Assembly (NCBI GenBank): GCA_036169735.1
Contig: JAVHNX010000051.1
Span: forward strand, 8,569-72,568
Direction: 5' to 3'
DNA length: 64,000 nucleotides
Origin: Minisyncoccota bacterium
GTDB taxonomy: Bacteria; Patescibacteriota; Minisyncoccia; Phycocordibacterales; UBA9973
Shown: positions 3,233-63,382 of the stretch, in pieces
Layout of the letters: every line of letters begins with the position of its first letter
Position numbering within the stretch: the stretch's first letter is position 1
Position numbers and translations under genes: made by a program
The notes under the pieces: model-generated
What the model was told of the DNA's origin: nothing
Seen by the model: only the letters and a program-made list of their open reading frames with translations
Database searches by the model: none

Positions 3233-4015
3233 ATGCGAACCAACAAAAAACAAAAGAAAATAATAAGGAAGGTTGAAGCTGTAGTGGAAGAAGAAAAGGA
3301 ACCAACCTTCCCTATGCGTATTAACAAATACCTAGCATGGAAACAGATTTCCACTCGCCGAGGTGCTGACAAGCTAATTGAAGACAGGCAGGTTTTTGTA
3401 AATGGTAAACTAGCGAAACTAGGCAGTAAAGTTCTAGAAAAAGATAAAGTAGAAGTAAAAGGAAATAAAAGCCAAAAAGCTTATGTTTATTTTGCTTATA
3501 ACAAACCAGTTGATATCATTACTCACTCTCCACAAAGAGAAGAAAAAGATATCAAAGAAAGTATAAAAAAAACTGGTCTACCAGATGATGTCTTCCCTAT
3601 TGGCCGACTCGACAAAAATTCTCATGGACTAATGATTCTGACCAATGACGGCAGAATTACTGACCAATTATTGAACCCAAAATATACTCACGAAAAAGAA
3701 TACATCGTAAAAACTTCCAACAAGCTCCGTGCCAACTTCAAACAAAAAATGGAAGCTGGAGTAAATATTGAAGGCTACACAACCAAACCATGTAAAGTAT
3801 TAATCGTAAATGATTTCGCTTTCAAAGTCACTCTGACCGAAGGAAAGAAGCACCAGATCCGCAGAATGTGTTCAGCTCTCTTCCAAGAAATAGCAGATTT
3901 GAAACGTGTTCGATTTATGAATATCAAACTCGGTACTTTAAAACCAAACGCTTTCCGAAAACTTGAAGGTGAAGAACTCAAAGCTTTCCTAGATCCAATC
4001 TTAAAACAGAATTAA
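3233..4015 (+). CDS. Pseudouridine synthase, RsuA/RluB family, with N-terminal S4 domain
   Basis: S4-like segment RINKYLAWKQISTRRGADKLIEDRQVFVNGK. Catalytic region GRLDKNSHGLMILTNDG. Family motif KKHQIRRM. Confidence 0.8.
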   Translation: MRTNKKQKKIIRKVEAVVEEEKEPTFPMRINKYLAWKQISTRRGADKLIEDRQVFVNGKLAKLGSKVLEKDKVEVKGNKSQKAYVYFAYNKPVDIITHSPQREEKDIKESIKKTGLPDDVFPIGRLDKNSHGLMILTNDGRITDQLLNPKYTHEKEYIVKTSNKLRANFKQKMEAGVNIEGYTTKPCKVLIVNDFAFKVTLTEGKKHQIRRMCSALFQEIADLKRVRFMNIKLGTLKPNAFRKLEGEELKAFLDPILKQN

Positions 4016-4018
4016 AAA

Positions 4019-4052
4019 AGCCCCCTTTATTTTAAGGGGGCTTTTTGTTTTT
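4019..4052. terminator. Bidirectional hairpin terminator
   Basis: AAAAAGCCCCCTTTATTTTAAGGGGGCTTTTTG. Confidence 0.65.
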
Positions 4053-4581: not shown

Positions 4582-4760
4582 TTGTTTTAGATTTATTGAT
4601 TATCTATATTCCCATAAAGAAACAGAGATAATCAATAAATACAGACAAAAGTACTAACAAAGAACTACATCAATACGTGTTCGATAATATCGTATCAACC
4701 AAAGATTGTCAATGCAATACAAAATAAAATCCCCCGACCTAAGTCGAAGGATTTTTTGTT

Positions 4761-6281
4761 TTATTTTTCCAAATCTAGAATTTCATCAATCCTAATTTGT
4801 TTTACGAATTCTGGTACGTGAGAAACCAAGATCATCGCTCCTTGGTATTTATCCAGCGCTTCGGCAATTACCGGCAAGTGACGGAAGTTTATATGGTTTG
4901 TTGGCTCGTCTAAGATGAGCAAGCCTGGCTTTTGAAGTACTAGTCTAGCAAAAGATACTAGACCTTTTTGTCCTTCAGACAAGCTACCAATACGAGTACG
5001 GATAAATTCTCCAGTAATCAAGAATCCTGCAGCAATAGAACGCATTCTTTCTTCATCCAATTTTTCTCCACCATCAAGCATTGCACTCGCAAGAGATTGG
5101 TACACTGTGTCGTCAAAATTGAGTGTAGAGAAGTCTTGTCGGTAATACCCAATACGAATACCTTCTTTGACTGTCTCCCCTTCAGACTTGCCACTCGCAA
5201 GTTTTTCCAACAAAGTACTCTTGCCAATACCATTAGGGCCGGCCAAAAGTAAGTGCTGATTTTTCTTCAAAGAAATATTCGCTTTATGTTTTACTATTTT
5301 ATGTTTTTTAGGATCCATTATCGAAAAAGAATTGATACTAAATATCTCACCAACCATATCTGGCTGAGATGGAATAGTAAAAGGTCGAATGGTCCTGTCT
5401 TCTTTGCGAACCTCCACAATATCTTCTTCAAGTTCTTCCGCTTTCTCACGCATACGTCGCGCAACTAATCTTAGTCGTCCTCCTTTGTGCGCGAAGACAT
5501 TGGCCTGATCTTTCTTGGCTTGAATTTCTTTTGCGAGTTGAGCGTTCTTTGCATTTTCTCTCTCGACTCGAGCAGTAATATCTTTCACCACATTAAAATA
5601 GTTCCCGACGTATTGTTCAATCTTTCGAGTATAAACATCTAAATACAGGACACCTTCAGTAAAAGCATTCAAAAATTCCGCATCGTGGGAAATAACCAAA
5701 ACAGTTTTTGTATAACTCATCAAAAATTTTGTCAGGTGAGCAATACCGGCTTTGTCGAGATTGTTTGTCGGTTCATCGAGCAAAAGTAAATCTGGGTCCT
5801 GAATAAGAGCAGAAGCCAAGAGTAAACGAGCTTGTTGACCACCAGAAAAAGTTTTAATTATTCTGTCATGCACTTTATCGTGGCCTTTTAAATTTACTAC
5901 TTCTAAAATATCATTAATCTTTACATCAATGTTGTAAATCTTTTTTTGAACACCCTCACCCCGTTCCTCTCCCTTATGGAGAGGGGGTTCCATAAAACAT
6001 TTTTCAAAAAATTCTCGGACTGTTAGGTCAAGTTGATCACGAGGGATAACCTGTCGTGCGGAAGCGATAGTCAAACCTTTTACAACATTAATGATTCCGG
6101 ATTCCGGTTTGAAAGAACTAGAGATAAGTCCGAAGATAGTACTCTTTCCAGCACCATTCTGACCCATCAAAGTGAACTTTGCGCCACGGCGAATAGAAAA
6201 ACTAACCTCTTCTAAAATAGGTTTGTTTATTCCGAACTCAAACGAGACATCATCGAATCGAACTATAGTTTCTTGAGCCAT
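4761..6281 (-). CDS. ABC-F family ATPase (two tandem ABC domains, no TMD)
   Basis: Two Walker A motifs (GQNGAGKST, GPNGIGKST), two signature motifs (LSGGQ, LSEGQ) and two Walker B motifs (LLLDEPTN, LILDEPTNH). Contains an in-frame GC-rich palindromic element at 5951-5992. Confidence 0.85.
   Translation of the reverse strand: MAQETIVRFDDVSFEFGINKPILEEVSFSIRRGAKFTLMGQNGAGKSTIFGLISSSFKPESGIINVVKGLTIASARQVIPRDQLDLTVREFFEKCFMEPPLHKGEERGEGVQKKIYNIDVKINDILEVVNLKGHDKVHDRIIKTFSGGQQARLLLASALIQDPDLLLLDEPTNNLDKAGIAHLTKFLMSYTKTVLVISHDAEFLNAFTEGVLYLDVYTRKIEQYVGNYFNVVKDITARVERENAKNAQLAKEIQAKKDQANVFAHKGGRLRLVARRMREKAEELEEDIVEVRKEDRTIRPFTIPSQPDMVGEIFSINSFSIMDPKKHKIVKHKANISLKKNQHLLLAGPNGIGKSTLLEKLASGKSEGETVKEGIRIGYYRQDFSTLNFDDTVYQSLASAMLDGGEKLDEERMRSIAAGFLITGEFIRTRIGSLSEGQKGLVSFARLVLQKPGLLILDEPTNHINFRHLPVIAEALDKYQGAMILVSHVPEFVKQIRIDEILDLEK
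5951..5992. repeat. GC-rich palindromic element, family A, inserted in-frame in the ABC-F gene
   Basis: CACCCTCACCCCGTTCCTCTCCCTTATGGAGAGGGGGTT encodes an extra peptide EPPLHKGEERGEGV. Same family as the copies at 9431, 18688 and 51356. Confidence 0.6.
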
Positions 6282-6712: not shown

Positions 6713-6722
6713 TATTCAATAA

Positions 6723-6757
6723 AAAACACCCCGACCTTGGTCGGGGTGTTTTTTATT
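6723..6757. terminator. Bidirectional hairpin terminator
   Basis: AAAAACACCCCGACCTTGGTCGGGGTGTTTTTT. Confidence 0.7.
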
Positions 6758-8105: not shown

Positions 8106-8130
8106 TAAAAAACTTTAAACTTGTGTTTTA

Positions 8131-8238
8131 AAAAGCATTGCACAGGCCGACGGGCCGAGCATAGCAAATTTTTGATTCTGCAGAATCATGCCGCGCAATG
8201 TCGATTGAAGCGCGGCCTCTTAATTATGTGCGGTTTTT
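8131..8238. repeat. GC-rich palindromic element, family B (intergenic, extended copy)
   Basis: AAAAGCATTGCACAGGCCGACGGGCCGAGCATAGCAAATTT...ATGTGCGGTTTTT. Shares both ends with copies at 34067, 51741(rc) and 53086(rc). This copy has an extra internal hairpin CCGCGCaatgtcgattgaaGCGCGG. Confidence 0.65.
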
Positions 8239-8273
8239 AAAATACAAGTTTGAGGTTTTTTAATTTTATATTT

Positions 8274-9125
8274 TTACGGAAAGAAATTATTTTTAATCCC
8301 CTTAACAGTCATGTCAGCCATTGTTTTATAAGCCTGATGACGTGTGGAACTCTTGCGAAATATTTTTTCGTAAACATACCCGTATTCAATAAGGATAGAG
8401 CGAACATTTGATGACAAAGTATTACTAGACCCAAGGGCTATTAGCTTTTGATCTGGAATCAATCCACCTTCTTCTTCTGGAAGTGTACTCGTTTTATATT
8501 TTTTAGAAAGTTGAGTAAAAACATTACCTGCTAACTTGGCACTCTTTAAAGAATTAGAGAACTGTCCATCTGGCATATAAATACTAAAACCTTTATAATC
8601 ACCTATTTTCCATTTTGTTGATCGTGGAATATCATTGAAATGAATATGAATTACAGCATCCATTTTATTTTCATTCGCCCATTTGTTTATCCCATACAAT
8701 TGGATAGAAGTATTTTTCGCGACTGAGTTGTGTACGACAACCACATTATTAACAAAAGCTCCACTGGAAACTTTTTTCTTCATCTCCTTTTTGGCGTTAT
8801 CTCTAAAAGAAATAATATCTGCTTCATGTAAGGACAAGTAACTAGTAAACTCTGTCGAGTAACCCTGACTGTTACGAGTAATATAAACCTTAAATCTTTT
8901 ATCCTTTTTAAGTAAGTTATATATTTGTGTTGCTAAAACTAGGTTCATGTCTGCTTCTTTTATGTTTCCATACTGTGCACCCCATATTTCATTGTCATGG
9001 CCTGGAACAAGTAATATTTTAATAGGCACCACTGGTTTTAGTATAGTTTTTACAACAGGTTTAGCTGCCTGTATAAAAAATACAGGAAATAAAAACATTA
9101 TTAGTATGAATAATACTTTCTTCAT
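8274..9125 (-). CDS. N-acetylmuramoyl-L-alanine amidase (Amidase_3-like), secreted
   Basis: Signal peptide MKKVLFILIMFLFPVFFIQA. Amidase_3-like motifs LVPGHD...E, ITRNS and AVIHIHFN. The ORF track extends to 9170 but the signal peptide is consistent with the start at 9125. Confidence 0.65.
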   Translation of the reverse strand: MKKVLFILIMFLFPVFFIQAAKPVVKTILKPVVPIKILLVPGHDNEIWGAQYGNIKEADMNLVLATQIYNLLKKDKRFKVYITRNSQGYSTEFTSYLSLHEADIISFRDNAKKEMKKKVSSGAFVNNVVVVHNSVAKNTSIQLYGINKWANENKMDAVIHIHFNDIPRSTKWKIGDYKGFSIYMPDGQFSNSLKSAKLAGNVFTQLSKKYKTSTLPEEEGGLIPDQKLIALGSSNTLSSNVRSILIEYGYVYEKIFRKSSTRHQAYKTMADMTVKGIKNNFFP

Positions 9126-9142
9126 TGTAGTACAATAATACC

Positions 9143-10085
9143 ATGCCTGAATTACCAGAAGTAGAGACAACCACTAGGGGCCTGAGAAAAGAGACTGTAG
9201 GCCTTAAAATAAAAGACGTTTGGACAGATTTAAATACCAAGGATAAACGTCAACATGATGCGGTCGCGAACCCGAAGTATTTTACTATTTTTAAAAAAGA
9301 AGTCGCGAACAAAAAAATAATATCAGTAGAAAGACAGGCAAAAAATATTTTGATAAATATGTCGGGTGGCAAAACTATTTTAATTCACCTAAAAATGACT
9401 GGTCATCTACTTTATGGAAAGTATAAATTTCACCCCTCCCCAACCCTCCCCTTAGCAAAGGGAGGGAGAAGTGTGGGGTCAATGGCTACCAGACGAACAG
9501 GGACCGCTACAAGACCCTTACAACAGGTTCATACATGTTATTTTTACTTTATCCAATAAAAAACATTTAGCTTTTTCAGATGCACGCAAATTTGGAAAGA
9601 TAACTTTGCTTGATACTAAAACAGCTCATGATTCAAGACATCTAAAAGATTTAGGACCAGATCCCCTATCTAAAGATTTTAGTTTAGAAAAATTTAAAGA
9701 AAGACTTTTTAAAAAACCAAATGGAAAAATAAAAACAATTCTAGTAGACCAGAGTGTACTCACTGGTATCGGAAATATTTATTCTGATGAAATACTTTGG
9801 TATGCAGGAATTCATCCAGAAAGAAGAGTGAAAGATATTAAGGAAAATGAATTCAAAAAAATGTTTCAAGTCACCAAAGAGACTTTAACTAAAGGTATAA
9901 ACTTTGGTGGAGACTCAATGTCAGATTACCGCAATATTTATGGTCTTCCAGGCAAATTTCAACTACACCACGAAGCTTATCATAGAACTGGGGAGAAATG
10001 CAGAAGAAAAGGATGCAAGGGTGTTATAATAAGAAAAGTTATTAATAGTCGGAGCGCACATTTTTGCTCCATTCATCAAATTTAA
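9143..10085 (+). pseudogene. fpg: Formamidopyrimidine-DNA glycosylase (Fpg/MutM), reading frame interrupted by a 49-bp GC-rich palindromic element (9431-9479)
   Basis: N-terminus MPELPEVE. C-terminal zinc finger CRRKGCKGV...CSIHQ. The two ORFs (9143-9559 and 9471-10085) are both Fpg segments in different frames. Removing nt 9431-9479 joins ...GKYKF to QWLPDEQGPLQDPYNRF... in frame. Confidence 0.75.
9431..9479. repeat. GC-rich palindromic element, family A (49 bp), disrupting fpg
   Basis: CACCCCTCCCCAACCCTCCCCTTAGCAAAGGGAGGGAGAAGTGTGGGGT. Its reverse complement matches the family A consensus CCTCCCCCTTnnnAAGGGGGAGGnTGGGAGGGGGT. Confidence 0.7.
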
Positions 10086-10100
10086 TTAAACAAAAAATAT

Positions 10101-10265
10101 ATGGCATGGGATCACTTAAAATGGTTAATCTTTGTTCTTATCGGACTTTGGTTTGTATGGTTTTTTACTGGTGGACCTCAAAGATATAGTAGCAATCAAG
10201 GACCTTTTCTTAGACCACCTGCTCCAATAGATACTGGGGAAATTTACGGACCTAAAGCTAAGTAG
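10101..10265 (+). CDS. Possible small membrane protein (54 aa)
   Basis: ATG-started ORF MAWDHLKWLIFVLIGLWFVWFFTGGPQRY... with one hydrophobic helix. Not in the supplied ORF track because it is under 60 aa. Support is weak. Confidence 0.25.
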   Translation: MAWDHLKWLIFVLIGLWFVWFFTGGPQRYSSNQGPFLRPPAPIDTGEIYGPKAK

Positions 10266-10282
10266 TGCAGTTTCTTTAAATT

Positions 10283-10783
10283 TTAAATACCTAGCATTCT
10301 AAAAAGTGCGATTCCTAAAGACACCGAAACATTCAATGACTCCTTCTTCCCTTTCATTGGAATCTCCGCAATAACATCACACTTCGATAAAATACTTTTT
10401 GGAATTCCAGAAACTTCCGTACCGACAATAAAAGCAGTCTTCTCTTTTGTTTTTACTTTTTTGTAATCAACAGAATTTTCTGACTGCTCTATGGCTATGA
10501 TTAAAAAACCTTCTTTCTTTAATTTTGTAATAAGTGGCAAAATACTTTTCTTTTGCTCCCATTGAACAAATTCTTCCGCACCGAGAGCAGACTTCGCTAT
10601 ATCTTTGCGCTTTATACCGAAACGATCCAAAGGTGCCGGAGTGTAACCAGTCAAATATATCTTGGAAATACCGGCTGCATCAGCCGTACGAAACATTGCT
10701 CCGACGTTCTCAGTACTACGAATATCAAGCAAAATTAAAACGTTTCCTTGATTTTGTTTGCCAATGGGTTGATTTTTTACCAT
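10283..10783 (-). CDS. SpoU/TrmH-family RNA 2'-O-methyltransferase
   Basis: SpoU-methylase motifs ILLDIRSTENVGAMFRTADAAG..., IVGTEVSGIP and NVSVSLGIALF. Start chosen at MVKNQPIG; the ORF track extends to 10864. Confidence 0.7.
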   Translation of the reverse strand: MVKNQPIGKQNQGNVLILLDIRSTENVGAMFRTADAAGISKIYLTGYTPAPLDRFGIKRKDIAKSALGAEEFVQWEQKKSILPLITKLKKEGFLIIAIEQSENSVDYKKVKTKEKTAFIVGTEVSGIPKSILSKCDVIAEIPMKGKKESLNVSVSLGIALFRMLGI

Positions 10784-10892
10784 ATTTCTTATACTATCAT
10801 AAGTACGCAATAGATTTGTGTTTGTGGTCTGTTGAAAAATAAATATATGCGCTGTGTGTAACATATAAGATAGGGTATATTTATATAATGAT

Positions 10893-10965
10893 GCGCTCGT
10901 AGCTCAGTCGGTAGAGCAGCTCCCTTTTAAGGAGATTGTCGTTGGTTCGATTCCAACCGAGCGCA
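10893..10965 (+). tRNA. tRNA-Lys (anticodon TTT)
   Basis: Acceptor GCGCTCG/CGAGCGC. D-arm TAGCTCAGTCGGTAGAGCA. Anticodon loop CTTTTAA. T-arm GTTGG-TTCGATT-CCAAC. Discriminator A; no encoded CCA. Confidence 0.8.
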
Positions 10966-16432: not shown

Positions 16433-16556
16433 TAATGAAAATTATAGCATTTATAGTGATTTTATTTAAAAAACGGTAGGTCTTGCCTACAGCTTACATT
16501 ATTGTTCCAGTTCACGTTCACCTTACAAAGCTCGCCTTTTGCAATAAAACCATCTC

Positions 16557-16608
16557 TTCCGCTAGGTTTCCGCTAGGTCTTTCCGCTAGGTCTTGCCTAG
16601 CGGAAGAT
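16557..16608. repeat. REP-like hairpin cluster (left flank of RAYT): TTCCGCTAGGT tandemly repeated three times, then the inverted copy CCTAGCGGAAG
   Basis: Seen directly. Forms the hairpin CTTCCGCTAGG-tcttg-CCTAGCGGAAG. A partial related hairpin (GTAGGTCTTGCCTAC) lies at about 16470. Confidence 0.7.
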
Positions 16609-17257
16609 TATAATTGAACCAATCAAAAACTTCTTGCCAAAAAACATCTTCAGTTGGAAAATACTTCGGAAAAGATTTCCTATCTAAAATCTTTTCCTCT
16701 ACTCTTTTGAATCCGGAATAATCAAGGAAACTTGAGTATTGATAATTTTTAAGATAATTTAACGTAATATTTTTATTTTTAATACCCTTTTCTATCCATT
16801 CTTTATCTATTAGTTTAATGGGATTAAAATGAATATAAGAAAATACATATTTCAAATATTGATCAGTATTGAGATGTTGTGATTTAAACTTACCTTCGAA
16901 TAATCCACCTGTTCGCTTATATTTTTTATTATAATACATCACATAAGCAGTAGAAAGCTTTTGCATAAATTTACTTAGGTTCCCATCATCTCCTTGAGTA
17001 ATCAATAAATGAAAATGATTAGGCATCAAACAATATGCTCCGATACTAACTAATGGACTATTTCTATCTATATCAAATAAAGTATCTCCTTTCGACAAAT
17101 TATCAATTTTAAAGTTATCTTTCTGGTTACAAGCATACAAAAGACCAATAAAGTGAACATAATCTTCTTTACTATTAAAAATTTTTTGCTTACTGTTTCC
17201 CCTATTATAAATATGATAATACTCACCTAGAGCAAACGGCACTGTGCGTATAGACAT
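16586..17257 (-). mobile_element. REP-associated tyrosine transposase (RAYT; IS200/IS605-type Y1 HUH transposase TnpA)
   Basis: Conserved motifs YHIYNRGN.KQ.IF and LMPNHFHLLI (HUH). Flanked by inverted REP-like hairpins at 16557-16608 and 17277-17316. Start chosen at MSIRTVPF; the ORF track extends to 17329 through the REP. Confidence 0.75.
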
Positions 17258-17276
17258 AATATTATTATATACTTTC

Positions 17277-17316
17277 CTCTCCGCTAGGCAAGACCTAGCG
17301 GAAGACCTAGCGGAAC
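17277..17316. repeat. REP-like hairpins (right flank of RAYT): CCGCTAGGcaagacCTAGCGGAAGACCTAGCGGAA
   Basis: Same CCGCTAGG/CCTAGCGG palindrome as the left flank, in inverted orientation. Confidence 0.7.
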
Positions 17317-17605
17317 ACACGCGTCCCAAACCATGAAACGCTGTATATTATTTGGAAAATAAATTTCTCCAGATTATCTCACCAACAAATTATTTTTTAT
17401 TTTTTCACAATACCACAACTCTTTTGTTAGGCATTACCCAACAAAACTCTCTGTAATATTGCAAATATATCTTTTACCCTAAGCTTGTACTAGGACACAA
17501 CCAAAGATAACAAAAGAATACATACCTATTATACAAAATTACATAAAAAAATCCCCCTGAAAAATTTCAGAGGGATTAAGAGATTAAGAACTTAAGGGTT
17601 TAGTC

Positions 17606-18442
17606 TTAAGAATTTAAGCGAAATGTTGCAGGAACCACAAAACGATGCCGACCCGAAGCACACCAAACACTGTAGTACGACAACCTGTCGACATTGAGCA
17701 GCAAGCGACCATCGTCACTGAAGTACACGTCGGCAACGAAGAACTCTTTCTTTTTTTCAACTTCTTCTTCAAAAAGGAAGAAAGTTCCACAACCATCCGT
17801 GCGAAGCCATGAAGAGTTTTCAAGACAAAATTTTTCAATTTGTTCCTGTGAATCAAATTTCAATTTCTTAAGATCCACATTGAATGAATTAAAAATTTCT
17901 TTGAAAGTTCCATCTTTAGCATGCATTTCCCAAACTTCTGCTTCTGTTTCCAAAGTAGCCGGCTGAGCAGTATCAAGTTTCCAATTTTTAAAATCATTAT
18001 CTAAATGAGCAGGAAAACTTTTACTAGCATAAGCCAATGAAGCTCTCGGTCCACCAGTGCAAGCAGAAATTTTTGGATTTTTACCTCCTGAAATCAAGCG
18101 GAGGTGAGATGTTTCTTTTACTTCATTTGTTATTGCAGATTTAATTGTTTCAACTTTTGGGAAAATTTTACGGAACATTTCTTCCATAATTTTTGGAAGA
18201 TCTTTATTCCCAATAATTTCATTTTGCATATCCTCTTCGTAAACCCAAGATGGGATTGCTTTTAAGATTGCATTATTTGCTTCGGTAGTATGCTTTGCAA
18301 ACTTTCCGACATTCTCAATTAGTTTTGTCATGAGCATTTCGTATTTTATTGTAAAAGAAATATAGATTTTCGAGCGAAGCTCAGGCAGTCTTTTGACCTT
18401 AAAACTAGATAAAGTATAGCACAAAAAGTGGTCATTTGTCAA
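17606..18442 (-). CDS. Hypothetical protein
   Basis: Long ORF directly downstream of tsaE. No recognisable motifs. The true start is probably internal (MLMTKLIENVGKF). Confidence 0.4.
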   Translation of the reverse strand: MTNDHFLCYTLSSFKVKRLPELRSKIYISFTIKYEMLMTKLIENVGKFAKHTTEANNAILKAIPSWVYEEDMQNEIIGNKDLPKIMEEMFRKIFPKVETIKSAITNEVKETSHLRLISGGKNPKISACTGGPRASLAYASKSFPAHLDNDFKNWKLDTAQPATLETEAEVWEMHAKDGTFKEIFNSFNVDLKKLKFDSQEQIEKFCLENSSWLRTDGCGTFFLFEEEVEKKKEFFVADVYFSDDGRLLLNVDRLSYYSVWCASGRHRFVVPATFRLNS

Positions 18443-18462
18443 GCCATGAAAAATATCCTTAT

Positions 18463-18951
18463 TTATAGTCCTTTTATCTTGAAGCTTCTATGCCCTTCTT
18501 TGGTATGCGAGATTGAAATCTTGTGATGTTTTTTCGGCATAGCTTTTTTAACATTCTCCGGCCATTCAATAAAAACTAAATGTTCTGGGTTTGAAATTAT
18601 TTCTGCCCAGCCTAGATTTAAGAGTTCTTGTTCGTTTTTTAATCTGTATGCGTCTAAGTGAAAAAGATTCTTGAACCCGTTCTTTCTCCTCCCCCTTACC
18701 AAGGGGGAGGTTGGGAGGGGGTTCTTCAGTGGATACCGCCTCATAATCACATAAGTCGGACTATTCACCTTGCCCTTGATACCCAAAAGTTTCGCGACGG
18801 CTTGAGTGAAAGTAGTCTTCCCTGTTCCGAGTTCACCCGACAAACCAATAACGCACGCGTTTTTACATTCTTTATTTAAAACGGTATCGAGGAATTCTTC
18901 CGCTATCTTTTCTGTGTCTTTTTGATTTTTTGAAATTATCTTATTTGGCAT
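18463..18951 (-). CDS. tsaE: tRNA threonylcarbamoyladenosine biosynthesis ATPase TsaE (YjeE)
   Basis: P-loop LSGELGTGKTTFTQ and the ...SPTYVIMRRYPL...HLDAYRL pattern. Contains an in-frame family-A element adding about PLPTSPLVRGRR. Confidence 0.75.
   Translation of the reverse strand: MPNKIISKNQKDTEKIAEEFLDTVLNKECKNACVIGLSGELGTGKTTFTQAVAKLLGIKGKVNSPTYVIMRRYPLKNPLPTSPLVRGRRKNGFKNLFHLDAYRLKNEQELLNLGWAEIISNPEHLVFIEWPENVKKAMPKKHHKISISHTKEGHRSFKIKGL
18688..18723. repeat. GC-rich palindromic element, family A, in-frame in tsaE
   Basis: CCTCCCCCTTACCAAGGGGGAGGTTGGGAGGGGGTT. Confidence 0.65.
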
Positions 18952-24414: not shown

Positions 24415-24573
24415 ATGGACGAAGAAGAAGAATCAATCGAAGAAAAGAGTTTTAGTTCAAGTAGTATCGATGATGAAAATTTTAATGATGATCTAGGTGA
24501 TACATTAGATCCGTTAGAAGTATCTGACCTGGGTATTGAAGACGATGATGATATTGATAAACTAGAAGAATAA
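24415..24573 (+). CDS. Small highly acidic hypothetical protein (52 aa)
   Basis: ATG ORF MDEEEESIEEKSFSSSSIDDENFNDDLGDTLDPLEVSDLGIEDDDDIDKLEE. Followed by a strong hairpin terminator at 24581-24607. Not in the ORF track because it is under 60 aa. Confidence 0.35.
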   Translation: MDEEEESIEEKSFSSSSIDDENFNDDLGDTLDPLEVSDLGIEDDDDIDKLEE

Positions 24574-24580
24574 TAAAAAA

Positions 24581-24607
24581 TCCTCCGATCTAATCGGAGG
24601 ATTTTTT
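24581..24607. terminator. Bidirectional hairpin terminator
   Basis: TCCTCCGATCTAATCGGAGGATTTTTT. Confidence 0.65.
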
Positions 24608-24609
24608 AT

Positions 24610-25989
24610 TTATACGATTTTTATGAATCTTCTCTTTCCAATCTTGTAGACTCCAGGAGTAGCTAAAATTTTAAAATCAGTAATTTTTGTTTCCCCTTCT
24701 TCACTCAACATTTTAACAGCACCTTCTTCAACAAGTCTACGCCATTCACTTTTTGAGGCAAAAACTTTATTTTCAAAAAGAACATCGACTAACAAATCTC
24801 CATCTTTGTATTTTACTTCTTCAATATCATCTGGAATCTCTTTTTTCTGAAAAGTATTAATGAAATTTTCCTGAGCTTCGTCTGCTTTAGATTCTCCGTA
24901 GTAGATAACAACAACTTCTCTAGCTAGCCTCATTTTTAAATCTTTTGGATTAACTTCCCCTACTCCGAGTATTTTGCGTATTTCTTCAACTTCTTCTAAT
25001 GGGGTGAAGGTACACAACTCAAAGTAATTACAAATAGAAGAATCTGGAATAGACATTATTTTTCCATACATATCATTTGGTTCATCAGTGATAGCAACAT
25101 AATTATCAAGACTCTTGGACATCTTTGCATTGCCATCAGTTCCTTCTAAGAGCTTAAAAGACAATACTGCTTGAGGTTCTTTGTTGTTCATTTCCATAAC
25201 CTCACGTCCTACCAACATGTTGAAATGTTGATCAGTACCACCAACCTCTAAATCACATGAACCATAGATATCATAAATTGCATCGGAATCAATTCCTTGA
25301 ATAACTGGGTACATCATCTCATGCATAAAAATCGGCTCTCTGTTTTTTATACGATCTTGGAACATGTCTCTTTCAACTAATCTTCCATGGGAAACATGTC
25401 TAAGAATCGCTAGAAAATTTATCAGAGTGTAATTTTTTATAACATTCCTTTGTCTGCGTGTTTCTACCCAGTTTAATGACTTATTGTAAATATCATTTTC
25501 GGGCAAAGTTTCTGTTCCATATTGTTTTTGAGAATATTCTTTAAAAATATCAACTGATCGCACCGGAGCTATGATGTCATTGATAGAAACAAACCAATCT
25601 GAATTCATGGTCCATGAAAAAAGCTTTTCATCTTTGAGTAAAATTTTATCAACTTGATTTAAATAAGTCTCCATATTTTTTTGGATCTCATCAATATTTA
25701 TTTCAGGTCGTATTTTACTTTTACCAGTAGGATCTCCAATTTGAGCTGTTATGTCACCAATCAGAAAGACTACCTTACACCCCATGTTTTGAAATTGGCG
25801 TAGTTTACGTAGTACTACCGCGTGTCCTAGATGAATATCTGGACGTGTTGGGTCAACACCGAACTTTATAACTATTTTTTCAGGGTTATTTTCTAATTTT
25901 TTACGAAAAATGCCATCTGGATCAATAAATTGACCTACCCCGCGGGTAAACAACTCGTCCATCATTTCTTTATCCTTGCTTATTTTCAT
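24610..25989 (-). CDS. tyrS: Tyrosyl-tRNA synthetase
   Basis: Class I motifs HLGH (DIHLGHAV) and KMSKS (AKMSKSLDN). GVDPTRPDIHLGHAVVLRKLRQFQNMGCKVVFLIGDITAQIGDPTGK aligns with the TyrRS N-terminus. Confidence 0.8.
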   Translation of the reverse strand: MKISKDKEMMDELFTRGVGQFIDPDGIFRKKLENNPEKIVIKFGVDPTRPDIHLGHAVVLRKLRQFQNMGCKVVFLIGDITAQIGDPTGKSKIRPEINIDEIQKNMETYLNQVDKILLKDEKLFSWTMNSDWFVSINDIIAPVRSVDIFKEYSQKQYGTETLPENDIYNKSLNWVETRRQRNVIKNYTLINFLAILRHVSHGRLVERDMFQDRIKNREPIFMHEMMYPVIQGIDSDAIYDIYGSCDLEVGGTDQHFNMLVGREVMEMNNKEPQAVLSFKLLEGTDGNAKMSKSLDNYVAITDEPNDMYGKIMSIPDSSICNYFELCTFTPLEEVEEIRKILGVGEVNPKDLKMRLAREVVVIYYGESKADEAQENFINTFQKKEIPDDIEEVKYKDGDLLVDVLFENKVFASKSEWRRLVEEGAVKMLSEEGETKITDFKILATPGVYKIGKRRFIKIV

Positions 25990-26150: not shown

Positions 26151-28690
26151 ATGTTTTCTGATATGATAAAGAGGATGAATAAAAAACTAAAGAATAAACA
26201 ATTTTTGAAAAACTTAGTACTGTTTTGTACTGGGGGTCTTATTATTTTATTAGGTGCATTAATAATTTTAGTTTCTAGTATAAAAATACCTGACTTTCGT
26301 TCTTTTGAAGACAGAAAAGTTGCAAACTCTACCAAAATATACGATCGTACAGGTGAAATTCTTCTTTATAATATTCACCAAGACGTAAAAAGAACCAACA
26401 TTACTTTTTCAGAAATGGGTTCGAATATAAAAAATGCAACAGTCGCAGTGGAAGATTCGGATTTTTATAATCATAGTGGAATACGAGTAACCTCTATTGT
26501 TCGAGCTATTTATTCTAATTTATTTCATGTTGGGATAGGTGGGGGTGGGTCAACCATTACACAACAGTTGGTTAAAAATACACTTCTAACACGAAATAAA
26601 ACTTACATCAGAAAAATAAAGGAATGGGTATTGGCAATCAAGATTGACCGATCAATGCCAAAAGAAAAAATCTTGGAATATTATTTGAACGAAGTTCCTT
26701 ATGGTGGAGCTGTCTATGGTATACAAGAAGCAGCAAAAACATATTTTGGGAAAAATGCGAGTGATCTAACTTTGGCCGAAGCTGCATATTTGGCAGCAAT
26801 ACCTCAGTCCCCCACAACCCTATCTCCTTATGGAAAAAATAAAGATAAACTTGAAGAAAGAAAAAATTTCGTACTTTCTAGAATGAAAGATGTAAACTTC
26901 ATTACGGAAGATATCTATAATAAAGCAAAAAATGAAGTTGTAACTTTTCTTCCTCAAACAACTGGAGGTATCAAAGCTCCCCATTTTGTTTTTTTTATTA
27001 AAGATTATTTAGAAAATAAATATGGTGTGGATATGGTGGAACAAGGTGGATTGAAAGTAACTACAACTCTTAATTACGACCTACAACAAAAAGGAGAACA
27101 GATTGTAAAAGAAGGAGCACTCCAGAATGAAAAAGATTGGAACGGTAGTAACGCAGGACTTGTAGCAATTGACCCAAAAACCGGACAAATATTGACAATG
27201 GTTGGTTCCCGAGATTATTTTGATAAAAAAATTGATGGTAACTACAATATTGCGACAGCGACAAGACAACCTGGCTCTTCTTTTAAGCCTTTTATTTATG
27301 CTACAGCTTTTAACGAAGGTTTTACTCCAGATACAGTACTCTTTGATCTACCAACTGAATTTCAAACAACCTGTAATGCTTATGGTAAAGCGTTACCAGG
27401 ACATAATCAAAGTGACTGTTATATGCCCGATGACTATGATGGGAAATTCCGTGGACCTATGAGCTTACGTAATGCACTAGCTCAATCAGTAAACATCCCT
27501 GCGGTAAAACTTTTTTATTTAGTTGGACTTAAAGATGCACTGAAAACTGCAGAAGATATGGGAATTAGTACCCTGACTGATTCAAGTCGATATGGACTTA
27601 CGTTGGTTATCGGAGAGGAGAAGTAAAACTTCTTGATATTACTTCTGCTTATGGTGTTTTTGCCAATAACGGTATTAGAAACCCAGCTACTGGAATATTA
27701 AAAATAGAAGATGCTAGTGGTAAAATCTTAGAAGAATTTACACCAAGCCCTCGAGAGATTTTACCAAAAAATACAGCATTAACTATTTCAAATGTTCTTT
27801 CTGACAATACTGCACGTATTCCAACATTCGGGGCAAATTCTGTTCTTCAAATTCCTGGTAAAGACGTAGCAGTCAAAACAGGAACAACCAACAGTAACAA
27901 AGACGCTTGGACCGTCGGATACTCTCCTGTAATAGCTGTTGGTGTTTGGGCTGGTAATAATGATAACAAGCCAATGAAAAAAGGAGGCTCGGCTGTCGCG
28001 GGACCTATTTGGAATAAATTTATTATTGAAGCAATGAATATATTACCAGATGAAAAATTTGATAAACCGAATTTGGAAGTTGATATTGAAAAAGTAAAAC
28101 CAGTAATTCGTGGAATCTGGCAAGGAAACGAAAATTTCTTTATTGATAAAATTTCTGGAAAACTAGCCACAGTTAATACACCAAAAGAAACACTGAAAGA
28201 AAAAGTAGTAACCAATGTACACACAATCCTTTATTGGGTAAACAAAAATGATATTATGGGACCTTCCCCAACTAACCCTGAGAATGATTCTCAGTTTAGT
28301 CATTGGGAAATTCCAATTCAAAATTGGTGGGCAAACAATAGTTACAAATATGCAAAAACAACTTTAGCAGAGAAACCAAATGCACAAGACGATGCTCATA
28401 CTGATGCCAATAAACCTGTTGTTGGAATTGTTCAACCGAATACCACCACCGTTTATCCTAGTAATCAAAAAATACAATTAACACTCTCAAATTCTGGAAC
28501 ATACCCTCTTCAAAAAATAGATGTATTTATAAATGATGTTTATTTAGGAACTTCAAAATATCCTTTTAACTTTTCATTCACACCTTCAGATTTAGAAAAT
28601 CTAAAAGATATAAACGAAATAAAAATTATTTCATATGACACTGCATACAATAGTAGTGAGACCACTTCTATTTTTGGTGTGAGTCAATAA
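26151..28690 (+). CDS. Class A penicillin-binding protein (transglycosylase plus transpeptidase) with an apparent -1 frameshift near 27617
   Basis: GT51 motif EDSDFYNHSGI. Transpeptidase SxxK motif RQPGSSFKP. The frame ends at LVIGEEK* (27626) and the PBP sequence resumes in frame +2 (GEVKLLDITSAYGVFANNG...KTGTTN...). A single G inserted in GGAGAGGAGAAG restores GGGEVKLLD. Confidence 0.7.
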
Positions 28691-28701
28691 AAAAACAAAA
28701 A

Positions 28702-28722
28702 GCCCCCGACCGAAGTCGGGGG
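28702..28722. terminator. Hairpin terminator, followed by a second hairpin
   Basis: GCCCCCGACCGAAGTCGGGGGC plus T-run, then TACGGAGGCAACGCCTCCGTA. Confidence 0.65.
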
Positions 28723-28793
28723 CTTTTTGTTTATCTTCTACGGAGGCAACGCCTCCGTATTTAACAAAAATATCAAGGGTAGTCCTTGATATT

Positions 28794-33554: not shown

Positions 33555-34046
33555 ATGGATAAAACAGAAATACAAAACTTAATAAAAGAATTGATTGAAA
33601 ATATGGCAATTTCCGTTAAAGAAATTGTTGTTTCCCAAGAAGATGATTCTAAAACCGTTTGGTATTCAGTAAGTGTTTCTGAACCACATTTCTTTACTAC
33701 TCGCGAAGGAGAGGCTCTTGCTTCTCTTAATCACCTTGTTAGAAGGATTATTGAATCTAAAACCCCTATGTCAGACATAGGGGAAGCTAAAAATGCACAA
33801 TATAATCCTATCCTGATAGATATTGGTGATTTTCAAAAGAAAAGAGTAGCAAATATTAAAACAATCGCTCATATGATGGCTGAGAGAGCTCGTTATTTCA
33901 AATCAAATATAGAAGTTGACCCAATGTCTGCTTTTGACCGTCGTATTGTACACGAGCATCTTTCAAATGCTACAGACCTTAAGACAGAATCATCTGGTTT
34001 TGGTCCTACTCGCCGAGTTGTTATTAAATATATTGGAGAACTCTAA
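33555..34046 (+). CDS. Jag-like KH/R3H RNA-binding protein
   Basis: C-terminal R3H segment FDRRIVHEHLSN...GFGPTRRVVIKY. Position after yidC. Contains an in-frame family-C palindrome (33763-33783) adding about TPMSDIG. Confidence 0.7.
   Translation: MDKTEIQNLIKELIENMAISVKEIVVSQEDDSKTVWYSVSVSEPHFFTTREGEALASLNHLVRRIIESKTPMSDIGEAKNAQYNPILIDIGDFQKKRVANIKTIAHMMAERARYFKSNIEVDPMSAFDRRIVHEHLSNATDLKTESSGFGPTRRVVIKYIGEL
33763..33783. repeat. GC-rich palindrome, family C (short form CCCCTATGTCAGACATAGGGG), in-frame in the jag-like gene
   Basis: Same arms as the 31853 copy but lacks the inner TTAGGGGATTTCCCCTAA core. Confidence 0.6.
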
Positions 34047-34066
34047 AATAAAGATTTTTGTTTTAG

Positions 34067-34131
34067 AAAGCATTGCGCAGGCCGACGGGCCGAGCATAGC
34101 AAATTTTCAGCAGAAAATTATGTGCGGTTTA
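34067..34131. repeat. GC-rich palindromic element, family B (intergenic)
   Basis: AAAGCATTGCGCAGGCCGACGGGCCGAGCATAGCAAATTTTCAGCAGAAAATTATGTGCGGTTT. Confidence 0.65.
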
Positions 34132-34163
34132 TAAAATATAAATCTTTATTTTAGAGTTGGGTT

Positions 34164-51176: not shown

Positions 51177-52160
51177 CTACTGAGCTAGCGAAATCCAATC
51201 TTCTAGTTTCAGTTCTTCGGCTCGTTTGTTTCCTAGCTCGGTTTTTTTGTATTGGACACCTGCATCTGCAAGGTTTTTTGAAAGTTTCTTTCTTTTGTGA
51301 GCAAAACCAGCTTTTACTATTTCCCAGAATTTCTCTTCGTCTGTATTTTTGTTCTCCTCCCCCTTAATAAGGGGGAGGCTGGGAGGGGGTGAATTTAAGA
51401 ACCTCACCCCAACCCCCTCCTCAACAAGGAGGGGGGTAAAAAAATTCTTCCTAGAAATATTTTTGATAGCTATCACAGCTGAATCCACTTTAGGTGCTGG
51501 TGAAAAATATCTTGCTGGTACTTTCATTATTATTTTTGGTTCTCCGTAAGCCTTTACTGATATAGATAAAATACTTTCTTTGCCGTCTCGTGCGACTATT
51601 CTTTTTGCTACTTCGTGTTGAACCATCAAGACCATTGTTTCAGGCTGATGTGCGTCTGTTAGGAATTTTTTTAATATTGCGCCGGTTATGTTGTATGGGA
51701 TGTTTGCGATTATTTTATAATCTTGAAGGATATTACTTTGAAAACCGCACATATTTCCCTGCTGGGAAATTGCTATGCTCGGCCCGTCGGCCTCCGCAAT
51801 GCTTTTCAAAACAATATTCTTCAAGATTATTTCGAGGTTTAACTCCAAAATATCTCCCCTAATTAAAACTAATTTTTTGGTAGCTATTTCTTCACTAAAT
51901 TTTTCGGTAAGTGTCTCAATAAGGTCACGATCTTTTTCTACAGCTATTACTACCCCTGCTTTTTCTAGAAGCTTTTCAGTAAGAGCTCCTTTGCCTGGGC
52001 CAATTTCTAAAATGACATCAGTAGGTGTTATATCCCCCGCTTCTACTATAGCCCGTAAGGCTGGTTCTGATTTTAGGAAGTTTTGTCCTAAAGCCTTTTT
52101 GGCTCGGACGAACCCGTGTACGGGTTTTAGTTCTAATGATTTTTTTGCTTTATGTATCAT
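51177..52160 (-). CDS. ksgA: 16S rRNA (adenine1518/1519-N6)-dimethyltransferase RsmA/KsgA, carrying two in-frame palindromic-element insertions
   Basis: KKALGQNFL...ILEIGPGKGALT SAM motif. At 327 aa it is long for KsgA. The extra segments TPLLVEEGVGVRFLNSPPPSLPLIKGEE (family A) and SIAEADGPSIAISQQGNMCGF (family B) account for the excess. Confidence 0.8.
   Translation of the reverse strand: MIHKAKKSLELKPVHGFVRAKKALGQNFLKSEPALRAIVEAGDITPTDVILEIGPGKGALTEKLLEKAGVVIAVEKDRDLIETLTEKFSEEIATKKLVLIRGDILELNLEIILKNIVLKSIAEADGPSIAISQQGNMCGFQSNILQDYKIIANIPYNITGAILKKFLTDAHQPETMVLMVQHEVAKRIVARDGKESILSISVKAYGEPKIIMKVPARYFSPAPKVDSAVIAIKNISRKNFFTPLLVEEGVGVRFLNSPPPSLPLIKGEENKNTDEEKFWEIVKAGFAHKRKKLSKNLADAGVQYKKTELGNKRAEELKLEDWISLAQ
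51356..51437. repeat. GC-rich palindromic element, family A, two head-to-head copies in-frame in ksgA
   Basis: CCTCCCCCTTAATAAGGGGGAGGCTGGGAGGGGGTG...CTCACCCCAACCCCCTCCTCAACAAGGAGGGGGGT. Confidence 0.65.
51741..51806. repeat. GC-rich palindromic element, family B (reverse orientation), in-frame in ksgA
   Basis: AAAACCGCACATATTTCCCTGCTGGGAAATTGCTATGCTCGGCCCGTCGGCCTCCGCAATGCTTTT. Confidence 0.65.
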
Positions 52161-52179: not shown

Positions 52180-54213
52180 TTACAGATAGATTGTTTTCAC
52201 TCCACTTTCTTCGCCTTCTTTTTCTAGTATATCATCTGGAATATTGGAAATAAATTCTGACGGAGTATTGATTTGTCGTGAACCGAAAATAGTTCGGTAG
52301 TTTGCATATGATAAAAACAATTTTTCTTTCGCACGAGTAAGAGCAACATAAAAAAGTCTTCTTTCTTCTTCAGAATCCTCTCCTGATCTTGTCTCACCAA
52401 ATTTTCGATGAGGAAAGAGTCCGTCTTCGAGTCCAGTTATAAAAACATATTTAAATTCAAGACCTTTTGATGCATGGACAGTCATTAATTTTACCCCAGT
52501 CTTGACCTCCTTCTTCTTATCATCATTAATCATAATACTGTCTTGGTCTGATGCGAGTGACGCATCTTCTAAAAGTTTTTCTACACCTGAACCATTTTCT
52601 AGTGCGTCATATTTAAGAGCTAAGGTCACCAATTCTTTTATATTTTCTAATCTTTCAGTATCTTCTTCTGTTCCAGTCATGAGTTCATTTTCTATACCAG
52701 ATTTTTTTACTGCGAATTTTATAACATCGGAGACTTTTGAATTTTCTATTTTTTCTTTTATTTCTTCCAATGTTTTATAAAAGTTATCCACTTTTATTTT
52801 TACTTTAATTGGTAGGGTTTCTTTTTCACCACTAAATATTTTTGCCATTGTGACTTTCCCAATCCCTCTGACCGGGAAGTTTATAATACGTCTGATGTCC
52901 GATAGACTTTCTGGGTTGAGTGCGGCGCGAAGATATGAGAGAGTGTCCTTTATCTCTTTTCTTTCAAAGAATTTAACACCCAGAACTTGATAAGGGACAT
53001 TGTATCTAAGTAACGCTTCTTCGAGTGCACGGGATTGGAAATTAGCCCTATATAATATGGCTACTTCGGACAGGATACTATTATTAAAACCGCACATATT
53101 TCCCTGCTGGGAAATTGCTATGCTCGGCCCGTCGGCCTGCGCAATGCTTTTAATAACAGTGTCCTGTCCTTTGTTTGAGCTGTTATCTAATATCTCTAAA
53201 ATTTTTGTCGCGACAAAATCAGCTTCGTCATTTTCTGCTAATCCTTCATATAAAGTTATTTTTTCACCAGCTGAATTTTGAGTAAATAGATTTTTGTCGG
53301 GTCGATATTTGTTTTTTTTAATAACTTCATTGGCGGCTTCTAAGATATTTTTAGTGGATCGGTAATTTTCTTCTAATAAAACTATTTTTGCATTTGGGTA
53401 ATCTTTTTCAAAATTTAATATATTTTTTAAATTTGCACCACGCCAAGAATAAATATTTTGATCAGCATCTCCGACGACACAGATATTTTTATTATTTTCT
53501 GAAAGTATTTTTGACATCAAGTACTGCACTTCGTTTGTATCTTGGTACTCATCGATGTGTATATACTCCCATTTTTCTTGATAACTTTTTCTTATCTGTT
53601 CGTTTTCTTTTAATAACTTAACTGCCTTTAAAAGTAAATCATCAAAGTCTAAAGAATTTTCTTTGTTTTTTTTGTTTTCGTATAAAGACCAAACTTGTGC
53701 AACAATCTTACTAAGATAGTCACTGGCATTTTCTGAGTAATCTGATAGATGCGTAAATTTACCTTTTTCTCTGCTGATAATACCTTTTATTTTTTTTGGT
53801 TCGTACTGTTTAGGATCTAAACTTATTTCTAGTATTGCTTCTTTTACCAGTGCGACAGAACTTGATTCGTCTAAAATAGTGAAATACTTTGTAAGCCCTA
53901 GAATTCTCGCATTTTCTTTGATTATAAAGACCCCTAGAGAGTGGAAAGTACTAACAAAAGGAATAGTATCATGCCCTTTAGCATTTTTTTCTATTTCTAA
54001 TATTACACGTTCCCTCATTTCTTTTGCTGCTTTGTTTGTGAAAGTAACAGCCAGGATCTTTTCTGGAGCAGTTCCTTGTTTAATTAAATTAACGATTCGG
54101 TGTGTAATCGTCTTTGTTTTTCCAGCTCCTGCGCCAGCCACAATAAGAAGCGGCCCATTCATGTGAATAGCCGCTTCTTTTTGTGCATTATTAAGTCCTT
54201 TCAAATGTTCCAT
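52180..54213 (-). CDS. pcrA: ATP-dependent DNA helicase, UvrD/PcrA/Rep family
   Basis: LNNAQKEAAIH..GPLLIVAGAGAGKTKTITHRI (motifs Q and I), plus ...VGDADQNIYSWRGA... and the later helicase motifs. Contains the in-frame family-B element (SIAQADGPSIAISQQGNMCGF). Confidence 0.85.
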   Translation of the reverse strand: MEHLKGLNNAQKEAAIHMNGPLLIVAGAGAGKTKTITHRIVNLIKQGTAPEKILAVTFTNKAAKEMRERVILEIEKNAKGHDTIPFVSTFHSLGVFIIKENARILGLTKYFTILDESSSVALVKEAILEISLDPKQYEPKKIKGIISREKGKFTHLSDYSENASDYLSKIVAQVWSLYENKKNKENSLDFDDLLLKAVKLLKENEQIRKSYQEKWEYIHIDEYQDTNEVQYLMSKILSENNKNICVVGDADQNIYSWRGANLKNILNFEKDYPNAKIVLLEENYRSTKNILEAANEVIKKNKYRPDKNLFTQNSAGEKITLYEGLAENDEADFVATKILEILDNSSNKGQDTVIKSIAQADGPSIAISQQGNMCGFNNSILSEVAILYRANFQSRALEEALLRYNVPYQVLGVKFFERKEIKDTLSYLRAALNPESLSDIRRIINFPVRGIGKVTMAKIFSGEKETLPIKVKIKVDNFYKTLEEIKEKIENSKVSDVIKFAVKKSGIENELMTGTEEDTERLENIKELVTLALKYDALENGSGVEKLLEDASLASDQDSIMINDDKKKEVKTGVKLMTVHASKGLEFKYVFITGLEDGLFPHRKFGETRSGEDSEEERRLFYVALTRAKEKLFLSYANYRTIFGSRQINTPSEFISNIPDDILEKEGEESGVKTIYL
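53086..53152. repeat. GC-rich palindromic element, family B (reverse orientation), in-frame in the helicase gene
   Basis: Nearly identical to 51741-51806 (CCTGCGCAATG versus CCTCCGCAATG). Confidence 0.65.
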
Positions 54214-63327: not shown

Positions 63328-63345
63328 ATTTAAATAAAAGAAAAA

Positions 63346-63369
63346 GCCCCCGACCTAGGTCGGGGGCTT
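63346..63369. terminator. Bidirectional hairpin terminator
   Basis: AGCCCCCGACCTAGGTCGGGGGCT flanked by A/T runs. Confidence 0.7.
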
Positions 63370-63382
63370 TTTCTTTTATTGT

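Follow-up and report, generated by a model that had tools for sequence, protein, structure and literature searches.

A broken fpg reading frame at the junction of an RPE-like palindromic coding repeat in a Minisyncoccota bacterium

Described palindromic repeats and the family-A element

The Rickettsia palindromic elements (RPEs) comprise several families of repeats that are found in frame in unrelated housekeeping genes, at positions that are compatible with the fold of the protein (Ogata et al. 2000, summarised in PMC10969869). A similar element was observed in the window, as we call the whole stretch of 64,000 nucleotides that was analysed here. With a covariance model built from the aligned copies, four clear copies of a GC-rich palindromic coding repeat, termed family A, were detected in the window:

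9431–9480, plus strand: family-A GC-rich palindromic coding repeat in fpg, covariance-model match of 72 bits
18674–18723, minus strand: family-A copy within TsaE, in frame, NPLPTSPLVRGRRKNG (covariance model, Pfam)
51342–51391, minus strand: family-A copy within KsgA/RsmA, in frame (covariance model, Pfam)
51400–51449, plus strand: shorter family-A copy within KsgA/RsmA, in frame and in the opposite orientation (covariance model)

The copies in TsaE and KsgA sit in intact open reading frames (ORFs) and the Pfam matches reach or cross them. The fpg copy, with the sequence CACCCCTCCCCAACCCTCCCCTTAGCAAAGGGAGGGAGAAGTGTGGGGTC and the translation HPSPTLPLAKGGRSVG(S) in the upstream frame, is the only one in the window that breaks its frame, as an earlier note on this DNA had pointed out. 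Family-A copies were also found in relatives, namely in the syntenic sister locus L001 (GCA_049287045.1, about 92% identity to the window), in L002, L083 and L088–L096, and in L089 the copy lies within a gene other than fpg. The Rfam search gave no match over window 9000–10300. The family-A consensus folds as an imperfect hairpin of 16 bp with −34.3 kcal/mol. Three window-specific substitutions in the fpg copy each weaken the hairpin, in total to −21.8 kcal/mol. When this energy was compared to dinucleotide shuffles it was not significant (z-score −0.85), because any sequence with such a C-arm/G-arm composition pairs. The resident copies in TsaE and KsgA have an AGAA state in common with the fpg copy, and the source copy of the fpg element may already have been different from the consensus.

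Family A is likened to the RPEs by its behaviour and not by sequence homology. In both cases the genome is reduced and AT-rich, and repeated palindromes of several families lie in frame in housekeeping genes that are unrelated to each other. Their translation adds peptide segments to the proteins at fold-compatible positions, and orthologues are polymorphic for their presence and absence. Family A itself is palindromic, is repeated in this genome and in its relatives and is present or absent between orthologues. In TsaE, in KsgA (two copies), in L089 and, within Fpg, in at least eight relatives its copies are in frame and free of stops, and only the window's own fpg copy departs from this. Size and host are different, since the RPEs are about 100–150 bp long and belong to Alphaproteobacteria, whereas the family-A type of about 45–60 nt forms strongly GC-rich hairpins and belongs to Patescibacteria. 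A description of coding palindromic repeats in CPR/Patescibacteria was not found in the literature searched.

The REP/BIME-RAYT systems are likewise composed of short GC-rich imperfect palindromes in many copies, and the window does encode an IS200-like transposase of the Y1/HUH type. REPs, however, are extragenic by definition and all four A copies of the window are intragenic. Family A as a REP/RAYT system is ruled out by these intragenic copies, and the Y1_Tnp gene is flanked by TTCCGCTAGGT, which is unrelated to A. The transposase ORF (16586–17329, minus strand) is located in an insertion of about 2 kb (16502–18471) that is absent from L001. It matched Pfam Y1_Tnp above the cut-off and the NCBIfam REP-associated tyrosine transposase below the cut-off. 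Arrays of TTCCGCTAGGT were observed on both sides of the transposase (16557–16605 and 17293–17315) and nowhere else in the window. We class the ORF as RAYT-like, with REP-like repeats of its own.

Inserts of GC-rich hairpins in AT-rich coding sequence, 27–55 nt in length, are also known from yeast mitochondria as mobile GC clusters and byp elements, and the coding gap of T4 gene 60 is 50 nt long. These inserts are skipped by the ribosome and are under no frame constraint. In contrast, the A copies in all intact genes keep the frame and contain no stop, and the fpg copy is without a usable pair of take-off and landing sites. The fpg locus also resembles the ordinary frameshift pseudogenes of DNA-repair genes in reduced genomes, in which an indel of one base cuts short a repair gene that is not essential. 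Here, however, the lesion coincides exactly with a mobile-repeat junction and is too young to show decay or a mutator footprint. The broken fpg is an ordinary kind of event, and the RPE-like context of the repeat merits more attention.

Other repeats and insertions were observed elsewhere in the window. Between ruvA and the amidase gene lies a MITE-like intergenic insertion of 90 nt compared to L001 (8015–8104), which is bounded by terminal inverted repeats of 22 nt (AGCAAGATATCTTAAATTTTTT ... AAAAAATTTAAGATATCTTGCT). A palindromic insertion of 45 nt at 5948–5992 (GAACACCCTCACCCCGTTCCTCTCCCTTATGGAGAGGGGGTTCCA) is in frame in an ABC-F ATPase gene (4761–6281, minus strand); L001 lacks it, and its relation to family A is only marginal (12 bits). 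Another repeat family is about 94 nt long, with the core GCATTGCGCAGGCCGACGGGCCGAGCATAGCAA and with copies at 8110–8172, 34045–34138, 51727–51820 and 53072–53165, and L001 has copies of this family at other places. One of the copies is in frame within KsgA, which brings the number of repeat insertions in KsgA to three. Palindromes consisting of an A-run, a GC-hairpin and a T-run were found at 4007–4050, 4717–4760, 6714–6757, 24568–24611, 28689–28732 and 63333–63376. They look like bidirectional intrinsic terminators, for example AAAAAGCCCCCGACCTAGGTCGGGGGCTTTTT, with the common core CCCCGACC...GGTCGGGG.

The two parts of fpg and the surplus base

The fpg region is AT-rich (about 35% GC) and contains one Fpg gene in two parts with the following features:

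9143–9430, plus strand: N-terminal coding part of fpg in the upstream frame, 96 codons (MPELPEVE...GKYKF)
9453–9455, plus strand: TAG of the downstream frame in the hairpin loop, the upstream limit of any frame switch, after which ORF2 opens
9460–9473, plus strand: candidate restart with a putative function, SD-like GGGAGGG (9460–9466) and GTG (9471–9473)
9481–9482, plus strand: lesion, one surplus A (either base) between the element and the conserved TGG (Trp), from the comparison with relatives
9482–9559, plus strand: out-of-frame tail of ORF1, MATRRTGTATRPLQQVHTCYFYFIQ followed by a stop, from the ORF list
9483–10085, plus strand: C-terminal coding part of fpg in the downstream frame, 200 codons (WLPDE...HQI and stop), encoding the remaining N-domain, the H2TH domain and the zinc finger

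The two overlapping ORFs, ORF1 (9143–9559, 138 aa) and ORF2 (9471–10085, 204 aa), are on the plus strand in different frames. That both are Fpg was confirmed by the ORF list and by the Pfam matches of their fusion. When corrected by one base, the fusion is a protein of 313 aa with full-length matches to Fapy_DNA_glyco (1–153) and H2TH (170–261), and a search of the protein databases with the corrected Fpg found thousands of homologues from Minisyncoccia, Paceibacteria and Nomurabacteria MAGs. The exact product of ORF1 was absent from the protein records in a database look-up, because the gene caller drops ORF1 on account of its overlap with ORF2. The frame switch is confined to the interval between the TAG at 9453–9455 and the ORF1 stop at 9557–9559, and the surplus A is the only length anomaly in this interval. 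The earlier note had described a 49-bp element whose deletion (9431–9479) restores the frame. The deletion of these 49 nt indeed refits the frame and joins TTT (F) to CAA TGG (QW), but the homologous in-frame insert is 51 nt long when orthologues are compared. It comprises the 17 codons HPSPTLPLAKGGRSVGS (9431–9481), with the conserved TGG directly after them.

The corrected Fpg protein was aligned with its 30 best relatives and the loop was classified across the 120 matches listed. In at least eight relatives the same element of about 50 nt was found in the same loop and in frame, which reads KYKF-HPSPTLPLARGGRRVGS-W. About 10 full-length Fpg proteins among the 120 matches listed had HPSPTLPLARGGRRVGS or a near variant at this loop. 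Intact orthologues with the in-frame element were P0005, P0007, P0008, P0013, P0019, P0034 and P0052 at the protein level, and at the DNA level the element was in frame at the fpg site of L002, L083, L088, L090, L093, L094, L095 and L096. The carrier loci were the orthologous L002 and L083 and seven metagenome contigs that were retrieved by the junction pattern.

The junction of the window reads GGGGTCAATGG, whereas L002, L083, L088, L090, L093 and L094 have GGGGTCATGG and L095 and L096 have GGGGTCTTGG. The window has GGGGTC-AA-TGG compared to A-TGG or T-TGG after the 50-nt elements of the carriers, and the element-free relatives read AAATGG at the 9481/9482 site. The window element could be aligned without gaps with the in-frame Fpg copies of L002, L083, L090, L093, L094 and L096. 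The fpg flanks were likewise free of gaps, and the window differed in length by one A only. On this comparison, it is not the element that constitutes the lesion but one surplus A at its 3' junction. The break of the frame at the element, which had been noted, is real, and the orthologues are in frame at the same site. The insertion of the element as the inactivating cause was not borne out, since at least eight relatives carry it in frame at the same codon. Intact fpg genes with the same element, which the earlier note had named as a refuting condition, were found in related genomes, but the insert there is one base shorter.

The surplus A could be a target base that was retained in an imprecise insertion, with insertion and inactivation in one event, because the AA before the TGG of the window matches the AAATGG of the element-free relatives. 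Alternatively, the element may first have been in frame and one base was later duplicated beside the hairpin. The three substitutions compared to the nearly invariant consensus fit such a two-step history.

Inserts in the Fpg loop

In this group of Fpg proteins the loop after GKYKF is usually short (NKNK, LKKENK and similar). The five closest relatives (P0001–P0004 and P0024, 79–92% identity) are without the A element. Four of the five have a homologous short loop (ILKENK, LPKDNK, LSKENK, LKKENK), as in the next clade. L001 has a different sequence of 30 nt in the loop with a small palindrome, AAGGTCGGACCTT, encoding 10 aa, which looks like the remnant of another insert family. The nearest carriers of the A element are 70–77% identical to the window Fpg. 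With the closest relatives free of it, the element is a recent arrival in the window lineage, in agreement with the earlier proposal. The native loop codons were replaced and not split, as is seen from TATAAAT(ACTTATCAAAAGAAAACA)AATGG in L097 compared to TATAAAT(TTCACC...GGGGTC)AATGG in the window. When we checked for the import of a foreign patch, the 5' flank of fpg kept the states of its own clade and only the first codon after TGG was unusual.

In a neighbour-joining tree with the loop masked, the A carriers were scattered, each beside element-free sisters. The same scatter among element-free sisters was observed for the carriers of three other insert types at this loop, B (PSPRPDLKNSKRSGLLLGS), C (TSPLAPLLNKERGLRRGS) and D (GIFKDGPWGNSLKNRPF). 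At least four insert families are found in this one loop of one protein in different lineages, which is a further difference to the RPEs, and the three that were read as DNA are unrelated palindromes. B and D were read in L099 and L100 as unrelated hairpins of −26.6 and −20.9 kcal/mol, and family C is known from its peptide only. Also different from the RPEs, the same A element is 90–98% identical between lineages, whereas the flanking codons are 72–77% identical overall and 53–59% at third positions, with the pairs among the window, L002 and L083 found by protein homology and not by a DNA pattern. This conservation can mean that a conserved master sequence has recently spread horizontally into the site, that selection at the nucleotide level is very strong or that a permissive-loop filter acts on frequent insertions.

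At the loop position, 36 residues of the window protein correspond to 8 residues in the Fpg of L. lactis. In an AlphaFold model (mean pLDDT 76) the insert residues 102–110 had a pLDDT below 50 and lay between the strands 94–97 and 113–116. The site is structurally permissive. Possibly, the hairpin elements of about 50 nt are horizontally spreading, site-directed mini-elements that time and again overwrite the same surface-loop codons of Fpg and of other housekeeping proteins in divergent Patescibacteria, and the window fpg would be a fresh imprecise, out-of-frame junction that selection has not yet purged. The contrast between the element and flank identities, the scattered carriers, the replacement of the loop and the unrelated palindromes in the same loop allow such a reading, which we regard as tentative and rather doubtful.

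No evidence was obtained for a phage vector of family A. The full A consensus was absent from the viral contigs (IMG/VR), and the inner hairpin alone matched six viral contigs of high or intermediate GC content that are apparently unrelated. These contigs (L101–L106, 42–70% GC) are not Patescibacteria-like and contain the inner hairpin CCCTCCCCTT...AAGGGGAGGG with AACCCCACCCC before it. Such hairpins may occur far beyond this clade. In L095, a second GC-rich palindrome (HPSPTPARPSHSGRLPLPRGGRRVGS) is nested in the loop of the A element at the fpg site (106–182), and the element is still in frame.

Lesions in fpg were also observed in relatives. The locus L097 (2482–3385; ENA WOOD18 scaffold_121806; P0024) is a close element-free relative with 81–88% nucleotide identity to the window. 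Its fpg has a lesion of its own, a 32-nt deletion near the 3' end that results in a product of 265 aa and removes the zinc finger. In the fpg of L090 (Ga0172379_10225769) an in-frame TAA takes the place of the conserved Lys of GKY (GGT TAA TAC), about 40 nt upstream of the A element. This is the third independent fpg lesion among about 20 loci that were read as DNA; the TAA may mark a pseudogene or be an error on the 1.3-kb contig.

Age of the break and readings of the broken gene

We consider it probable that the window contains a recent null allele of fpg at the junction of an RPE-like coding repeat. The host genome is that of an AT-rich Patescibacteria of the Minisyncoccia/Paceibacteria type, with short GC-rich palindromic repeats in its housekeeping genes. 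Like the RPEs, these repeats are translated and presumably form extra surface loops. After the window lineage had split from its sequenced sisters, a family-A repeat of about 50 nt would have taken the place of the short loop in the Fpg N-domain between two beta-strands (KYKF and W.P). The 3' junction is one base too long (A at 9481/9482), at the codon where the element is in frame in other lineages. Translation from 9143 would then produce 96 native codons, the element peptide of 17 codons and 25 out-of-frame codons before a stop is reached. The frame would be lost after ...RSVGS and the last two thirds of the enzyme, with the remaining beta-sandwich, the H2TH domain and the zinc finger, would not be made from the fpg start. 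As judged from the sequence, the break is most probably inactivating and the allele would be a null and a nascent pseudogene.

The age of the break was estimated from the codon changes. Compared to L001, the dN/dS was 0.058 for the 96 upstream codons and 0.075 for the 200 downstream codons, at a dS of about 0.33. When the changes were polarised with the outgroups L097 and L098, the window lineage had 14 synonymous and 4 nonsynonymous changes (L>M, I>L, V>I, R>H) and the L001 lineage had 11 and 7, respectively. A dN/dS of 0.06–0.075 and just 4 nonsynonymous changes that are specific to the window lineage give no sign that selection on fpg was relaxed or that the gene decayed further, and a pseudogene with such values could only be a very young one. 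As a rough bound, about 110 nonsynonymous changes would be expected under neutrality on the window branch, and because only 4 were observed, selection on fpg would have been absent for no more than a few percent of the branch. The purifying selection downstream of the break fits a still-functional gene as well as a very young pseudogene.

The loss of Fpg is expected to lead to an excess of G:C>T:A changes. No excess was observed in the unpolarised comparison (85 versus 96, in 1151 differences) nor in the polarised one (5 versus 10), and the suggested effect of the fpg loss on the mutation bias is so far not borne out. Since there is no mutator footprint yet, the loss of fpg is not the cause of the AT bias. 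The break is very young, because neither relaxed selection nor a mutational footprint was seen. The view of a recent, not yet purged insertion in the earlier note was correct in part: the element is recent and the break young, but the break is the surplus A and not the length of the element.

The reality of the extra base was assessed with Logan per-run assemblies, which were reached via a small recorded gene adjoining fpg (10101–10265). Contig L085 (SRR25490536), which recurs in three samples, was 100% identical to window 8143–10923 and contig L086 (SRR25490545) to window 9459–10923, and both contain GGGGTCAATGG with the extra A. The exact 204-aa product of ORF2, which is callable only if the frame is broken, was present in four Logan contigs. 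The runs with the extra A are probably from one study or site and represent independent assemblies, not necessarily independent populations. GC-rich hairpins in AT-rich genomes are hard to sequence and to assemble, contig L086 breaks inside the element and fpg otherwise looks fully functional, which would agree with an error in the sequencing or assembly, a true sequence of GGGGTCATGG and an intact fpg with the element in frame. Such an error is very improbable. The same extra A is in the Logan assemblies of several runs, with 100% identity over up to 2.8 kb, and the site is AA and no long homopolymer. In the alignment of about 19 kb to L001, the surplus A was the only frame-breaking indel inside a coding region; the other one-base indels were all intergenic and the other coding indels were multiples of three. 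An intact Fpg of the same species was not on record among 5.8 billion proteins, where the best intact one was 91% identical. An assembler artefact is unlikely as the source of the extra A, because the per-run Logan assemblies agree and the assembly is otherwise clean. Taken together, the per-run assemblies show that the sampled population truly has the surplus base.

With the base accepted as real, fpg could be expressed as a split gene, with the 204-aa C-terminal part made from GTG 9471, GGGAGGG as the ribosome-binding site and the pieces forming an active Fpg. Possibly, ribosomes on ORF1 would melt the hairpin and the restart would be coupled to their passage. In the Logan contigs, this GTG is the called start of the 204-aa product. 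No other start codon occurs from the frame-0 stop (9453) to the conserved Trp, and a restart at the GTG would keep the whole C-terminal part. The GTG was made by a window-specific G>T at 9472 that is absent from seven other copies, and the hairpin, which would mask the SD sequence and the start, is weakened by each of the three window-specific substitutions. In addition, the cut falls in a surface loop and the downstream part is under strong purifying selection. The cut is, however, inside the N-terminal beta-sandwich, ORF1 bears an out-of-frame tail of 25 aa, and a second lineage with such a split was not seen. By our own enumeration, about 4/72 single substitutions in the nine frame-0 codons from the stop to the Trp create a start, and three substitutions give a chance of about 16% for an accidental start codon. 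The low dN/dS is explained equally well by the youth of the break. We take the restart at GTG 9471 as a lead, not as evidence, and a functional split gene as improbable. Extremely unlikely is a recoding event, where a +1 shift (e.g. GGG to GGU, 9476–9479) or a hop over the hairpin yields the full-length Fpg. The stable hairpin with an internal SD-like tract is just upstream of the required shift window (9456–9556), a GGA...GGA pair is spaced by 49 nt (9416, 9465) and the downstream frame is conserved. Yet the relatives with the element are all in frame and hence have no conserved shift site. The upstream frame reads GUG GGG UCA AUG GCU, with no stop or rare/hungry codon at the site and no stop for 26 codons, and the SD-like tract is about 13 nt upstream of the candidate +1 shift site. 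A bypass with the GGA pair, the only one with the 49-nt spacing, would delete the invariant KYKF, and no stop follows the take-off site. The remaining copies of the family are in frame and stop-free, and therefore the elements are translated and not skipped.

In conclusion, a recent null allele is our preferred reading of the window fpg. It would mean that a natural population of a reduced-genome bacterium has a fresh knock-out, or at best a two-piece form, of the 8-oxoguanine glycosylase. For the annotation of such genomes, gene callers retain the 204-aa piece only and domain searches would score fpg as present and intact-like. The Fpg loop is a natural series of gains, replacements and remnants in which the insertion mechanism and the site choice can be studied. 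If the site-directed mini-elements were true, they would represent a homing-like behaviour for a coding palindromic repeat without an enzyme of its own. The phenomenon known from the RPEs, selfish palindromes inside proteins, appears in Patescibacteria, where in-frame palindromic inserts lengthen many proteins with low-confidence loops.
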